A model generated the notes under the pieces. It was not told the origin of the DNA. It searched no databases and saw only the letters and a list, made by a program, of their open reading frames with translations. Source: Squalus acanthias (lineage: Eukaryota). Taken from it: 64,000 nucleotides of DNA. Made by a program: the position numbers and the translations under genes. Of this stretch, positions 44,863 to 49,675 are shown piece by piece. The stretch's first letter is position 1, and each line of letters starts with the position of its first letter. The DNA lies in NCBI GenBank assembly GCA_030390025.1, contig CM059431.1, forward strand, positions 105,030,001 to 105,094,000, in the 5' to 3' direction.

Positions 44863-45267
44863 AATCAAGGCAAAAGGAGATGGTAATGGCACAGGTTAAG
44901 AAACAAAGGGGGAAAAATTAGGTCGCGCCCCATTTGGGGTGCAAATATCGTCTGGACGCAAATATTAGCGCCTGGCGCTAATTATCGCCACTGACTGGAA
45001 ACTTCACTTTTACCGGCCCCGGGAGGTGAGTGGAGCGCTAAATCAGGCGCTGCACACCTGTCTTAAGGCGCAAAGGCCGAGCAGTGAGGCGCTAACTCAG
45101 AGCGCGAGCGCAGCGCAGCTGCTGCCAGTTAGCGAGGGAACACAGACACACTGGCGCCGGCCACTTCTTAAAGCGGGGGGGGCCAACTTGCTCCCCAGCC
45201 ACACCCTGCTCATTGCAGCCTTGAATCTCGGCCTGGAGAGACCTGTGAATCCATTTTGCTGCCAAGG

Positions 45268-47153
45268 ATGGAGAGGGTGAGAGAACGAGCTCATCGCTTC
45301 ACCGAGCGGGCCTTGGATGCTCTGGTTGGCGCGGTGGAGCACAGAAGATGTATACTCTTCCCTGAGAGTGGCAGGAGGCCTTTGCCACGCGAGTACAGAA
45401 GAGTGTGGAGGGAGGTGGCTCAGAGCGTCTCCTCCAGGAGCATGGTGCCCAGGACCCATACTCAATGCTGCAAAAAGTTCAACGACCTCACTCGGGTCGT
45501 CAGGGTGAGTGGCTTTTTCTCAATACCTCTCCATCCCTCCATCTCAACCTCACTCTATGGCCAGAGGGTCTTAAAACCCCAATGCACAACACTCATCCAA
45601 CACCTATGGCCCTTTCATGAAACACACACACACATTCCACACTTTGCATACAGTAAGGGCTATTCACCTATGGGAGGCACATCAGGCAAGACCATGGCTG
45701 CATACAGTCAGGGCTATTCACCTATGGGAGGCACATCAGGCAAGACCATGGCTGTATACTTACTCAGATGCTGTCCTTTTTCTTACAGGCCAAGCTGGCG
45801 CATAATCGGAGACAGCAGCAATGGACAGGTGGAGGGCGGCCTCAGCTGCAACCCCTCAGCGATCTTGAGGAGCGCGTCCACAGGATTGTGGCAAGCCGGG
45901 TGATTGGTCCCGTCGCCACTGGAGACGCCGACCCCGTTGTGGACAGCAATGGTAAGGTCATCACCTTTTTGTCCTCTGTCCTTCCACTTGTCCCTCACAA
46001 CACCAGCCTTTGACACTTTCAATCCAACTTGCTAACTCGCTGCACTTATTCCTCCCTTACTGCCACCCTGTCCTCACGCTAAAGCCACTCTTGTACCTCC
46101 CTGCTTTCAGATGGTGATTCACCAGCTGAGGAGACGGGCCCTGAAGCTGCCACTGGGAGTGAAGCTGCAGCCGAGGAGGAAGAGGAAGCCGGAGCATCAG
46201 TGCCACCCTCTCCCGAGGAAGCCCATGCCCACACTGGGAACACGCCTTCCCTGGAGGGGAGCAGGGGGGAAGGGTCTGATGAGGGTGAAGCTCCAGGACC
46301 CAGCGGGCTGCAGCAACGCCATGGGGGTAGGGAAGAACGGGGGCCTTCTCCCCAGAGGGAGAGTATGCCAGACACTCCTACTGCAATGGACGCAGAGGAG
46401 GAGCGGCTGATCGCAGAAATGAACACCCAGGCGGTGGGCATGCACACTGAGCTCATGGGTGCAGTGGGAAGGGTGCCCGAATGCATTGAGTCACTGGCAA
46501 GGAGTGTGGAGCACTTCGCTGTAGCACAGGCGGATGCCACACTAACGCTTAGTGCTGCAATTCAGTCACTGGCTGCCGTGATCCCATCTCTGACTGCTCT
46601 CATGCAGACTCAGATTGAGGCCACGCGAGCACAGGCTGCTGCCAACCTTGATGGTTCGTTCACATGTCCCCGGGGCTGTCACCGCGCCGCAGCAGGCCAG
46701 CAATCTGTTCTCCAGCAGATTGCTCCGGATGCTGAAGTGCTGCCCCGTGGGAGTGCCAGTGTGTCGGGCGAGCAGGGAGTTGCTGTCCTCTCTCACGATG
46801 ACAGCATTCCTGCTGCCAACACTGTCACTTCTCCACTGCACTTGCCACTGCCTGTAGGACAGACTGCTGCCGCCCATGCAGAGTTGTTGCAGTCTGCAGC
46901 CGGGCCCTCCAGGCCCAGAACTGGTCGAGGCCGTCCTTCAGGGGCATCTGCAGTGTCAGGGTCTGACGAGCAGCAGTCTTCCACCAGCCTTGCTGCAGCC
47001 ACTGAGGTCCCATTACGGAGGAGCAGTAGGGTTAGAAGGGGGGAAGTGCGCAAGGGAAGGAGATCACCCTCGAAGGGCAAAAGTAGGAGGTGTGACAAAA
47101 TGCTGGTCATTTTTATATTAAAGGTCGAGGTTCATGGTCCAACTTTTGTTTAG
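45268..47153 (+). CDS. Harbinger Myb/SANT-like DNA-binding protein, predicted 480 aa; exons 45268-45504, 45789-45951, 46111-47153
   Basis: Exon 1 RFTERALDALVGAV...ILFP...VWREVAQSVS...RTHTQCCKKFNDL; exon 2 AKLAHNRR...TGGG; GT-AG introns (AGG|GTGAGT, TACAG|, ATG|GTAAGG, TTTCAG|) in compatible phases 0 and 1; no stops. Confidence 0.85.
45647..45754 (+). repeat. 54-bp tandem duplication in intron 1 of the Myb-like gene
   Basis: CATACAGT(A/C)AGGGCTATTCACCTATGGGAGGCACATCAGGCAAGACCATGGCTG twice. Confidence 0.95.
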
Positions 47154-47213
47154 TGTTTTGGACATTATCTCCAGGTTGTGAGAACCAGTTATGTTATTGA
47201 CTGTTTTTTTGTG

Positions 47214-47269
47214 TTTATTTCTATGAGTTTGTCATGAGGAATTGACACACACAGAGTTTGTAAAATAAA
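47214..47269. terminator. Candidate opposed polyadenylation signals between the convergent genes
   Basis: AATAAA on minus (47214-47219) and plus (47264-47269) strands. Confidence 0.5.
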
Positions 47270-47398
47270 TAAGTTTCTGTATTCAAAATATACATGGTTG
47301 GTGGTTGGAATTATTGGTGCCTTGGCCGGCTTAGGGGTTGCGTGCTGGGTTCATTGATGTTGTTAGCAATGGCAGAAGCCATTTCCACAGCAGGGGCC

Positions 47399-48559
47399 CT
47401 AGAAGCGGCTTGCTATCAGCCGTTGACGGACGGCCCTTGCAGTTTCACCATTGTGGGCCGCCCTCCCGCCTTGGTGCTGCTGATGATCATCCTCCTCGTC
47501 CTCTTCCTCCTCTTCCTCCTCCTCCTCTGGTGGTGCTCCAAGGCCTGGTGGCATTGGCTGGGTCCTGAGGATTGCCATGTTATGCAACATGCAGCACACA
47601 ACTACGAAGTTGGATACTCGCTCAGGCGAGTACTGCAGGGCTCCTCCAGAACGGTCGAGACAGCGGAACCGTTGCTTCAGCACGCCGATTGTGCGCTCAA
47701 TTATGTTCCTGGTAGCTTGATGGCTCTCATTGTACCGCAGCTCAGCAGGGGTGTTGGGCGTACGGAGCGGTGTCATCAGCCAGGTGCTCAATGCATACCC
47801 CTTGTCCCCGAGAAGCCAACCAACTGGCTGATGCGGTGCCTCGAAAAGTTCTGCCACAGTAGTCTGGCGCAGGATAAAAGCATCGTGGCAGCTGCCAGGA
47901 TAGTGGGCATTGACAGTGAGTATCAGCTGTCTGTGGTCACAGACCAACTGAACCTTCAAGGAATGGAACCCCTTTCTGTTCCGGAATTCCTCGGCATTCT
48001 CATGCGGAGCACGCAAAGCCACATGCGTGCAGTCAATGGCGCCCTGCACCATGGGGAAGCCCGCTACCCTCGCAAAGCCCAGAGCGCGGTCACGCTGCTT
48101 GTCTGGGGTCATAGGGAAAGAGATGAACTCTCGTCTCCTTTTAAAGAGGGCATTTGTGACCTGCCGGATGCAGCAATGCACCGCGAACTGGGAGATATTG
48201 GCGAGGTCCCCAGCAGCAGCTTGAAATGAGTCAATAGCGTAGAAGTTGAGAGCCACTGTGACCTTCACTGCCACCGACAGAGACGTCCTGGACCTCATTT
48301 GAGGCTGCAGATCTGGCTGCAGCAGGTGGCAGAGCTCAATGACCACCTCCTTGCTGAATCGCAGCCTTCGCAAACACAGCTCCTCAGACATATGAATGTA
48401 GGAGAGCTGTTCACGATATACCCTGGGAGGGTAAGCTCTCCTGTACATACGCCTGTTGGCCCTCCTCCGTCTGGCCATCATTGCCACTCTCTCTCTGCAT
48501 CTCTGTGTCCTCCGATTCAGCTGGAGCAGGACGACGCCCCCAATCAGTGCAGCCCCCAT
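47399..48559 (-). CDS. Harbinger DDE transposase (HARBI1-like family), 386 aa from first ATG
   Basis: Uninterrupted ORF with catalytic motifs GAIDCTH, LLGDKGY, RNIIERTIGVLKQRFRCL; N-terminal HTH-like region; CCMLHN. Confidence 0.93.
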   Translation of the reverse strand: MGAALIGGVVLLQLNRRTQRCRERVAMMARRRRANRRMYRRAYPPRVYREQLSYIHMSEELCLRRLRFSKEVVIELCHLLQPDLQPQMRSRTSLSVAVKVTVALNFYAIDSFQAAAGDLANISQFAVHCCIRQVTNALFKRRREFISFPMTPDKQRDRALGFARVAGFPMVQGAIDCTHVALRAPHENAEEFRNRKGFHSLKVQLVCDHRQLILTVNAHYPGSCHDAFILRQTTVAELFEAPHQPVGWLLGDKGYALSTWLMTPLRTPNTPAELRYNESHQATRNIIERTIGVLKQRFRCLDRSGGALQYSPERVSNFVVVCCMLHNMAILRTQPMPPGLGAPPEEEEEEEEEDEEDDHQQHQGGRAAHNGETARAVRQRLIASRF

Positions 48560-48749
48560 AGTCTCTTTGCAAGCAAAGTAATGAAGGACAGCAACTAAAG
48601 TACTAGCGAAGTTAGGATCAGTAGGCAAAACTACCTCACAAAGCGTTGAGTCAATGCAGAAGTCTCTCTTTCTCTCTCTCCGAATCTCTCTCTCTCTCTC
48701 AGAACGAGTGGTGCAAAAATGTCCACCACAGAAAAAGACAGGAAGAGGC

Positions 48750-48765
48750 CCCCTTTAAATAGCGC
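48750..48765 (-). promoter_or_regulatory. TATA-like box of the transposase gene (tentative)
   Basis: TATTTAAAGGGG on minus strand ~190 bp upstream of the ATG; possible 5' UTR intron ending TTGCAAAG just before the ATG. Confidence 0.4.
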
Positions 48766-49675
48766 CCCCCCCAGCCCCACAGCGATTGATAGCGTTCCAG
48801 TCTTCCGGTCGTTGGATGCGCCAGGCGGTAAGGCAGGGGGCGCCACTCAATTTCCGCTCCGGGGCGCCACAAGGGCGTTGCACCATGGAATGACGTCACA
48901 ATCTGCGCGCGCAGGTGGTCGCAGCGGTAAGGTTTAGCGCCGCTGCACAATCTCTAGTTAAGTTCCCGAGCGGCGCAAACATTGCTGCGCCCGGGCGTTA
49001 GCGCCTTTGCGCCCCATTAGCGCCCTCTTAAGGCGCTAGCGGGAGGCGCAAACAACTGAATTTTTACCCCAAAGTTTATTGTTAGCCCTGTTAAAACATA
49101 TATATTATTTTTTCAAAAAATTAAATTTTTGTTTAAAATATTTAATTAAATAGCATTTTAATTAATTTTAAATATATAATTAAAAAAGAAATTTCTTCTG
49201 TTTGTGTATTTTTTAAGTGATCCCCATTCATACTTATGGGGATTCCGTATGTTCAGAACTCCCATAAGTATGAATGGGGATTCCCTTCTTTTATTGGCTG
49301 GGCCGGCCCACGTGATCCCAGGGGTGCTTGCGAACCGCCTGCACCCTGGGATACGTGGGGCTCTGCCCGCGCGGACCCGGAGAGGCCCAGGATCACGAGT
49401 CTGCGTACCTCCCGGGCCACCAGGTAAATGTACAGATATTTTACAGGCCGGAGGCGTCTGCCCACGGGAAACCACCGATGGCAAATGTTGGGCCAATGCC
49501 ATGAAGGATCGACAAGTGTATAAAACAAAGAGAAGACATTACAAGGTTTCACTGTGGGTACAGAGTCTCACTAGACACAAGCGGGGAGATGTGATAAGAT
49601 GATGCTGCAACACTGCAATCCTGATTCTGTGGCCCACGTGTGCATCTACCAAGGCTGCGTGTTGACAGTGGAGAA

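Follow-up and report, generated by a model that had tools for sequence, protein, structure and literature searches.

Within the 64,000-nucleotide stretch of Squalus acanthias DNA analysed here (the window), we identified a full-length, structurally complete two-gene Harbinger DNA transposon of 4,163 bp (44908..49070), with its two genes arranged tail to tail. The element is bounded by 12-bp terminal inverted repeats (44908..44919, forward strand; 49059..49070, reverse strand), of which 11 of 12 bases match and which both begin with G, as for PIF/Harbinger-like (PHIS) DNA transposons. It is flanked on both sides by an AAA target-site duplication (44905..44907 and 49071..49073, without strand), and thus has the ends described in the initial annotation. 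A motif scan of the subterminal regions, irrespective of strand, revealed four WWGCGCC motifs at the left end (44966..45094) and seven at the right end (48935..49051). In the left 250 bp, shuffled sequences contained on average 0.47 such motifs, with 2 of 1,000 shuffles reaching four, while the right end compares with an average of 0.67 and none of 1,000 shuffles reaching seven. These motifs represent candidate binding sites for the Myb-like protein encoded by the element.

On the reverse strand, an open frame of 386 aa (47399..48559) encodes a DDE transposase retaining the D176, D252 and E288 triad and matching Pfam DDE_Tnp_4 (137 bits, E 4e-40) as well as Plant_tran, confirming the transposase originally reported; among solved structures, none matched the transposase profile. 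The forward strand carries a Myb-like gene comprising three predicted exons: exon 1 with the Myb/SANT domain (45268..45504), exon 2 (45789..45951), and exon 3 as read here (46111..47153). These are separated by two predicted GT..AG introns (45505..45788 and 45952..46110), the first of which contains a 54-bp tandem duplication at 45645-45752. The predicted product is 480 aa long, without an internal stop, and exon 1 matches Pfam Myb_DNA-bind_5 (E 4e-08; 33.5 bits against a cut-off of 21.7). Although a word-indexed search with exon 1 as query gave no match, a full HMMER search recovered 58 Myb-like homologues, with alignments covering residues 11-455 and spanning the joint between exons 1 and 2. 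No solved structure matched the Myb exon, and matches to the Myb profile were limited to coiled-coil and low-complexity ones.

Three candidate poly(A) signals lie between the genes: ATTAAA just 3' of the Myb-like gene's family stop, described below (47117..47122, forward strand), AATAAA for the transposase gene (47214..47219, reverse strand), and a second Myb-like candidate, AATAAA, at 47264..47269 (forward strand). The overlap of 3' UTRs proposed earlier is consistent with the AATAAA signals at 47264 on the forward and 47219 on the reverse strand, a pairing that also arose in 2.6% of 5,000 shuffled versions of the segment, but use of the ATTAAA at 47117 would leave no overlap. The abundance of CpGs noted previously was not borne out: the observed/expected ratio of the element is 0.55 against 0.53 for the whole window, being raised only at the ends (0.75 and 0.94) and zero in intron 1. 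We therefore rejected CpG content as an indicator of youth.

Nested insertions at the target site

The Harbinger element is the youngest layer of a pile of MITE and retroelement insertions. The oldest layer is a MITE, whose left half (43487..43827, forward strand) and right half (49071-49497) join into the MITE copies found at 13886-14648 and 32956-33809. Between these halves, and with the Harbinger at its end, lies an older retroelement-like repeat fragment (43828..44907, reverse strand), matching 1543-1834, 33168-33291 and 62162-62340 at 85-95%. A MITE at 44098-44863 in turn interrupts this fragment, and joints skipping that inner MITE are present in all four of the public sequencing runs considered below. 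The designation retroelement-like is our reading of an 11-bp duplication (49071-49081, identical to 43817-43827) left by the older insertion, not a library match.

The right AAA corresponds to the first bases of this 11-bp duplication. Since the two flanks belong to different repeats, we considered whether AAA/AAA could be a chance match, and rejected this because nesting of the insertions accounts for the flanks. Rebuilt via the duplication of the older insertion, the empty site reads AAAC-AAA-GTTT, palindromic about the triplet, such that the element has a 3-bp target-site duplication within an extended palindromic target. No empty-site joint occurred among the joints listed for the runs, with 55% of run X3 read.

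Family abundance and copy-specific differences

Of 23 runs of public sequence data, four (X3, X11, X15 and X18) were compared, with variants taken from 40 of 239 rows. Each of the four runs spans the whole element, and majority-letter contigs reach average depths 240-720 times that of the single-locus contig; a bin chosen as single-copy control (50188-50408) had no coverage in all four. The family probably comprises hundreds of copies. Its sequence lies approximately 1-2% from this copy (~1.3% for the majority contigs of X11), supporting the earlier view of a native element and placing it in a little-diverged, abundant family. This abundance also bears on whether the two genes could be a HARBI1/NAIF1-like pair domesticated at a single locus, as the open frames and the database name of homologues, 'putative nuclease HARBI1', might suggest. 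HARBI1/NAIF1-type genes are single-copy and lack inverted ends, whereas here the inverted ends and target duplication are intact, the element is nested in other repeats, its near-identical copies probably number in the hundreds, and its differences bear no sign of selection; domestication is scarcely credible.

For 17 of the 33 variants listed inside the element, each of the four runs has the other letter at no less than 89% of its depth; the remaining 16 are polymorphic among runs, with some contigs 4-7% away. In the Myb-like gene, this copy lacks one base at 47078 that most of the sequence in each of the four runs has: an extra A follows this position in 71%, 90%, 100% and 100% of depth, with 29% of depth in run X3 lacking the extra base. 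In the family frame, translation would end at a TAG at 47084-47086 to give a protein of 458 aa, and a sawshark Myb-like homologue terminates at the same point. The deletion skips this stop, and the 480-aa product is thus a read-through of the 458-aa protein, which loses its last three family residues and gains a 25-residue foreign tail while keeping the basic tail. The Myb-like gene predicted initially, with its canonical introns and open frame, stands, but its length does not represent the family. Of the runs listed as containing the element, none is recorded as RNA. Run X11, guessed to be RNA, contains contigs retaining intron sequence (45426-45674 and 45940-46134), although contigs indicate neither level nor strand. 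No spliced form occurs among 15 of 296 joints listed for this run, which, as contigs only, provides no evidence either way.

Both proteins carry further changes specific to this copy. In the Myb-like protein these are R68C in exon 1, R91W in exon 2, T309A and P423S. R68C falls within the third, conserved helix of the Myb domain, at a position occupied by arginine in 45/58 homologues and by cysteine in one. The transposase differs from the four runs by R21C, T109I, G110D, A215T and H303R. T109I and G110D fall in a conserved transposase motif, with position 110 being glycine in 96/120 homologues and aspartate in 4/120, and no contig in the four runs has this copy's letter at the corresponding sites (48234 and 48231, respectively). 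At position 303, by comparison, this copy has the commoner residue among homologues (R, 65/120) while the runs have H, indicating that not every difference represents damage. At two further transposase positions, N202K and P236A, this copy differs from most homologues (N in 90/120, P in 86/120); both lie outside the 40 of 239 variant rows listed.

Of ten coding differences among the 17 shared by all runs, nine change a residue, a ratio which in this small sample does not differ from neutral expectation (P = 0.16 for one or fewer silent). CpG decay accounts for 7 of the 17 changes, compared with CpG bases constituting 8.6% of the element. Further, a neutral copy at 1.3% divergence would keep both frames stop-free with a probability of about 0.39 (0.62 x 0.63). 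Stop-free frames are to be expected by chance at such divergence.

Owing to the frameshift and substitutions, neither protein retains the functional sequence of the family. We consider it likely that this copy, a full-length member of an abundant Harbinger family, is decaying without selection and can no longer move itself. Given the frameshift and the substitutions that hit conserved positions of both proteins, we regard it as probably a defective passenger and not a tool ready for gene transfer. Loss of function through these changes is suggested by residue conservation: R68C may weaken DNA binding by the Myb-like protein, and T109I/G110D may disturb the N-terminal helical region of the transposase. 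The differences presumably arose after insertion, in part through methyl-CpG decay, and, with nearly whole ends, the copy could still be moved by proteins supplied by sister copies. The initial annotation had viewed this copy as intact and usable for gene transfer, a claim it held would fail if the family sequence revealed inactivating changes; the frameshift, R68C and T109I/G110D largely appear to be such changes, and the claim is not supported.

That the copy is nevertheless still autonomous, its substitutions being tolerated, its longer Myb-like tail harmless and both genes expressed in the germ line, appears unlikely to us. Both frames are open, splice sites are canonical, the DDE triad is kept, the ends and 11 subterminal motifs are present, and the copy lies only ~1.3% from the X11 majority contigs. 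The transposase also departs from none of the 31 columns conserved at 90% and only one of 86 at 80%, faring better than nearly all homologues, and the catalytic triad is kept in only 53 of the 112 homologues covering it, with 59 having lost at least one catalytic residue. Against autonomy, the residues altered by R68C and G110D are conserved in approximately 80% of homologues and present in each of the four runs, and the frameshift and CpG-decay signature point the same way. Moreover, a mutation in the Myb helix-turn-helix of rice ORF1, albeit of a different residue, is described as abolishing excision (PMC2836001).

A further, quite improbable, explanation is that the differences reflect a minor subfamily or assembly errors, with the element being functional in this form, now or once. 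The family is heterogeneous (16/33 variants listed are polymorphic and some contigs 4-7% away), the deletion falls in a short A run, residue 303 agrees with distant homologues, and a small subfamily could escape contigs, which drop rare variants. Contrary to this explanation, the other letters at 48231 and 48234 make up all depth in four runs, and CpG transitions make up 7 of the 17 differences, a bias not expected of sequencing error.

Known Harbinger systems and the question of horizontal transfer

With a Harbinger-type DDE transposase and a second gene for a Myb/SANT protein, the element is a PIF/Harbinger-like (PHIS) DNA transposon. According to the available text of PMC4482050, it resembles NuwaI, NuwaII and PIF/Harbinger of PHIS in comprising a DDE ORF and a Myb/SANT ORF over about 4.1 kb, and in ends under 60 bp that start with G. 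The C and G around the triplet fit the NuwaII target C|TNA|G, but the AAA triplet does not, and one related element in the window has CTG. AAA also differs from the TWA duplication of the strict PIF/Harbinger group (Han et al. 2015), and lies outside the group-defining triplets given in that text (TWA, CWG, TNA and ANT).

The reconstructed zebrafish element Harbinger3_DR (Sinzelle et al. 2008, as cited in PMC2836001 and PMC3016246) was compared by description rather than sequence. As described there, both share a DDE transposase with a Myb-like gene, short inverted ends, and a 3-bp duplication within a palindrome. Relative to its target, AAACAC-CWG-GTCTTT, the flanks here (AGAAAC / GTTTAT) agree at A-6, A-4, A-2, C-1, G+1, T+2, T+4 and T+6, and differ in the triplet, AAA here and variable among related elements. 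By analogy with this system, the Myb-like protein of the family may bind the element ends, probably at the clustered WWGCGCC motifs, and carry the transposase into the nucleus and position it. The DDE transposase would then excise the element and insert it into a short palindrome at its central triplet, with duplication of 3 bp.

The nearest named proteins derive from sharks and rays (Pristiophorus, Heptranchias, Narcine, Mobula and others), annotated as 'putative nuclease HARBI1' and 'myb-related transcription factor'. The transposase is 55-66% identical to its best hits among 120 listed matches, and the Myb-like protein 36% identical to a sawshark protein over residues 11-455. Judged by these identities, no listed shark or ray protein is close enough to belong to this family.

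Recent movement of the family between distant organisms by horizontal transfer was also considered. Runs labelled with seven organisms hold over half of the element's words (shares of 0.53-0.65 in organisms B to G, besides A), and vertebrate-to-vertebrate Harbinger transfers have been published, as reported in PMC9179366 and PMC8437027. In X18 and X15, which represent two of the six other organism labels, the element occurs as short, branching contigs at a depth of about 45, and host flanking repeats are present in proportions as in the DNA of organism A (SINE-like bins 7.1x and 9.9x versus 6.1x). Since flanking host repeats accompany the element, horizontal transfer was rejected for these two runs, in which the matches look like trace host-lineage DNA. 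Also, none of the element's words occur in two further organism E runs belonging to the same study, and no protein exceeds 66% identity among the 120 hits listed. For the family as a whole, we regard recent horizontal transfer as very improbable.

Family activity and related elements in the window

Intact vertebrate Harbingers are already known, and their rarity was overstated in the initial annotation. The sea krait element Harbinger-Snek, as presented in PMC8437027, has 269 intact copies in Laticauda colubrina and one in L. laticaudata, both genes being covered by RNA reads, and Harbinger expression is also reported in teleosts and a newt. Harbinger-Snek is likewise a native vertebrate Harbinger with both genes, representing a large recent expansion (PMC8437027). 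It is described as having arrived by horizontal transfer, whereas relatives of the present family, at 47-66% identity, are spread over sharks and rays. A teleost survey reports no Harbinger in the elephant shark, the only cartilaginous species examined, from which they are reported to have been lost, and, in the text available, called for tests in other cartilaginous fish (PMC9179366). The present data show a complete, abundant and little-diverged two-gene Harbinger family in a shark, with a majority sequence within 1-2% of this copy.

While this copy is one of many and of little import, the family represents the lead. That it still contains autonomous, transposing members, which would make it a native DNA transposon still alive in a cartilaginous fish, is possible, if doubtful. 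Activity does not follow from open frames, a preserved DDE triad or CpG content, especially where a lineage mutates slowly. Were the family active, it would offer a new gene-transfer system, with two components, target selectivity and MITEs of its own.

As first noted, related MITEs lie nearby. Four non-autonomous elements in the window, none assigned a strand, share the end sequence and WWGCGCC motif: 21330..22072 (743 bp, five motifs, matching the left end at 74% across 134 bp), 22478..23130 (653 bp, ATA duplication, three motifs, matching the right end at 77% across 84 bp), 39428..39838 (about 410 bp, CTG duplication, four motifs) and 63088..63753 (666 bp, TAT duplication, nine motifs). Target triplets vary across the four, comprising ATA, TAT, CTG, and TTT or TTA.

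Organization of the element and its two genes

The element at 44908-49070 (4,163 bp) was found to be a real, complete Harbinger. Its terminal inverted repeats agree at 11 of 12 bases between the ends, with AAA on both sides. On the minus strand, an open transposase gene (48559-47399, 386 aa) matches Pfam DDE_Tnp_4 (137 bits) and, from comparison with homologues, retains the catalytic triad D176, D252 and E288, bearing out the initial annotation of a full two-gene transposon with inverted repeats, target-site duplication and an open transposase with its D-D-E residues. The plus-strand Myb-like gene comprises three exons (45268-45504, 45789-45951 and 46111-47153) separated by GT..AG introns, with a Myb_DNA-bind_5 match on exon 1; as predicted to be spliced, it encodes a stop-free 480 aa. 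Homologues spanning the first exon joint, one of which aligns with residues 11-455 (E 2e-61), support this predicted splicing. Also identified was a 54-bp tandem duplication in intron 1 (45645-45752); contigs from three public sequencing runs all end at 45674, 30 bases inside its first unit, as would be expected if many family members carried the duplication.

The best transposase matches bearing names, among the best 60 of 120 listed, were from sharks and rays (47-66% identity), as were all 7 Myb-like matches looked up, which points to a shark as the host. Many of the transposase homologues (P0001-P0120; shark, ray and other entries named 'putative nuclease HARBI1') lack at least one catalytic residue (59 of the 112 covering the triad), most commonly through replacement of E288 by K (19 of 120), and a large share of these gene models probably represent dead copies of transposons. 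Among vertebrates, native Harbingers that have intact genes or are expressed have been reported from sea kraits (PMC8437027), a newt (PMC5741667), and teleosts and coelacanth (PMC9179366), and domesticated Harbinger-derived genes are covered in PMC9392472. The teleost survey records no Harbinger in elephant shark and names other cartilaginous fish as still to be tested (PMC9179366). Among the papers listed by our literature searches, none was seen to describe an autonomous shark or ray Harbinger family; this family may have an entry in Repbase or Dfam. A term search of the main text of a shark and ray repeat survey returned no mention of Harbinger (10.1101/2025.06.08.657570), and in a whale shark paper the term is listed a single time (PMC8455134).

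Insertion site and terminal motifs

The flanks of the element belong to different repeats, which together form a nest. Its oldest layer, a MITE, is now in two parts (43487-43827 and 49071-49497) that, put together, match two other copies in the window. A retroelement-like fragment (43828-44907) split this MITE, leaving an 11-bp duplication (43817-43827 = 49071-49081), and the Harbinger inserted at the end of that fragment. Given such unlike flanks, AAA/AAA might be taken for a doubtful duplication, a reading ruled out because nesting accounts for the flanks; the AAA target-site duplication is genuine. The empty site as rebuilt reads AAAC-AAA-GTTT, a palindrome about the triplet, and its flanks agree at 8 of 12 positions with the reported Harbinger3_DR target AAACACCWGGTCTTT (PMC3016246). 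Triplets at four related short elements differ (ATA, TAT, CTG, and TTT or TTA), with G following the right triplet in all four; as we read the left ends, the left triplet is preceded by C or T. Since AAA is not among the triplets given as defining PHIS groups (PMC4482050), the element was placed in the superfamily and in no group.

The motif WWGCGCC is enriched in the left 250 bp (4 against 0.47 expected; count reached in 2 of 1,000 shuffles) and in the right 250 bp (7 against 0.67; 0 of 1,000). Across the window there are 55 matches against 19 expected; the Harbinger holds 14 of them and the four short elements together hold 21. From the Harbinger3_DR model, as cited in PMC2836001 and PMC9179366, WWGCGCC is a candidate binding site of the Myb-like protein. 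The four short elements have the Harbinger's end sequence, yet similarity reaches only 74-85% over stretches of 32-134 bp; they are relatives using the same signals rather than deletion copies of its family, and the related MITEs proposed initially are thus present nearby. The proposed abundance of CpG holds at the element's ends, which are CpG-rich because WWGCGCC itself contains CpG, but not overall, observed/expected being 0.55 in the element against 0.53 in the window, with none in intron 1. CpG content here is therefore no sign of youth.

Sequence family and probable decay of this copy

At least half of the element's words occur in 19 of 23 listed runs. Contigs of four runs (X3, DNA of organism A; X11, guessed to be RNA; X15; X18) were compared over 44000-50620, and all four cover the element end to end. 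In X3, of which 55% was read, a contig from the right flank of this locus has a depth of 25.1. Relative to it, mean depth is 240- to 720-fold for contigs that carry the majority letter, across six sites; this is a rough sign, rather than a copy number, of a family with hundreds of members. Divergence from this copy among the eight longest displayed contigs is 1.27% (X11), 1.97% (X15) and 2.06% (X18). Single contigs (32 of 118,478 pieces displayed) differ by 0-7.5%, so the family has a majority near to this copy and subfamilies that lie farther from it.

From 40 displayed variant rows of 239, seven flank rows were dropped and 33 scored; at 17 of these, a different letter makes up 89% or more of the depth in all four runs. 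CpG transitions make up 7 of the 17, against 8.6% of element bases in CpG, pointing to methylation-driven decay once the element was in place. Ten changes are coding, nine altering a residue and one silent, consistent with neutral change (P = 0.16). The Myb-like protein differs from the family by R68C, R91W, T309A and P423S; position 68 falls within a conserved stretch, C67-K69-N72-D73, and among 58 homologues 45 have R there, 3 have K and 1 has C. The transposase differs by R21C, T109I, G110D, A215T and H303R, with G in 96 and D in 4 of 120 homologues at position 110, and this copy's letter at positions 109 and 110 in no contig of the four runs. An extra A after 47078 accounts for 71% of depth in X3 and 90%, 100% and 100% in the others. 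Because this base restores a stop at 47084-47086, after 458 aa and at the point where a sawshark homologue also ends, the predicted 480-aa protein is a read-through with a foreign tail; it is stop-free as annotated, but the family form is 458 aa and this copy has a one-base deletion. We guess that ATTAAA at 47117, if used as a poly(A) signal, would end the message before the new stop.

The frameshift at 47078, R68C and T109I/G110D, set against the compared runs, speak against the initial annotation of an intact, potentially active copy; the copy is likely crippled. That it is still autonomous is improbable, although the triad survives (of 112 homologues, only 53 retain it), the transposase agrees with all 31 columns conserved at 90% and with all but 1 of 86 conserved at 80%, a record equalled by only 2 of 83 homologues covering the latter, position 303 has the commoner residue, and the frameshift removes just three family residues. 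Open frames are weak proof, since at 1.3% neutral change both would be stop-free with probability ~0.39. Rare variants are dropped from contigs, leaving room for a small subfamily that may carry this copy's letters. Active members of the family are conceivable, if doubtful. In citing papers, the Harbinger3_DR model combines a Myb-like protein and a transposase (PMC2836001, PMC9179366); by analogy, the Myb-like protein would bind the element ends and carry the transposase into the nucleus, where the transposase would excise and reinsert the element. Most likely this copy arrived by a similar route and has decayed since. With ends nearly whole, it could be moved in trans; supply of the two functions by separate copies is reported for a nematode family (PMC13668399).

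Age, foreign runs and neighboring repeats

By divergence (1.3%) the insertion is young, on the order of ten million generations at the pedigree rate reported for another species, the epaulette shark (7e-10 per base per generation, interval 1.4-14.1e-10; PMC10587355). The X3 flank contig differs from the window at 5 of 326 bases, the same order as the element's divergence; the insertion may therefore be as recent as the separation of these haplotypes, or more recent, and may also be polymorphic.

In runs labelled as organisms B to G, 53-65% of the element's words are present. In X18 and X15, short branching contigs (depth ~45) carry the element, and repeats of the host flanks keep to the proportions of X3 (1.6x and 2.3x for the left flank, where X3 has 1.8x; 7.1x and 9.9x for SINE-like bins, where X3 has 6.1x), while two sibling runs of organism E (X22 and X23) hold none of its words in a word-index comparison. 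A trace of host-lineage DNA explains the matches in X18 and X15, the two runs that this check covers, and horizontal transfer into their organisms is not needed. X15, a run of organism E, holds host repeats at trace depth and its siblings none, a signal that is likely carry-over of foreign DNA, which can mimic horizontal transfer in word-index searches.

The split MITE is the sixth of a GGCCC...GGGCC-ended set (44098-44863, 23164-23907, 58338-59081, 13886-14648 and 32956-33809) flanked by AAT or ATT, the two sides being reverse complements rather than direct repeats in 5 of 6. A 2-bp AT duplication, as in ISL2EU, or an ANT target would fit, and these MITEs seem different in kind from the Harbinger. 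Several donor-like GGTAAG motifs lie in the AT-rich centre of the MITE at 44098-44863 (44280-44460) and in matching parts of the sister MITEs, beside a pyrimidine-rich, acceptor-like stretch. A second Harbinger Myb-like gene is represented by a decayed exon 1 (16359-16559, minus strand; Myb_DNA-bind_5, E 5e-4), 36% identical to the one in the element; after it come a stop and an intron-like stretch, and no transposase was found beside it. Other repeats include an ORF with a CCHC zinc knuckle (7157-7618, minus strand), likely the first ORF of a retroelement, and a LINE-like reverse-transcriptase fragment with related pieces (7945-9267, 18320-18997, 28989-29232 and 40762-41509), where 40762-41472 forms a 711-bp near-perfect palindrome (97.5%).
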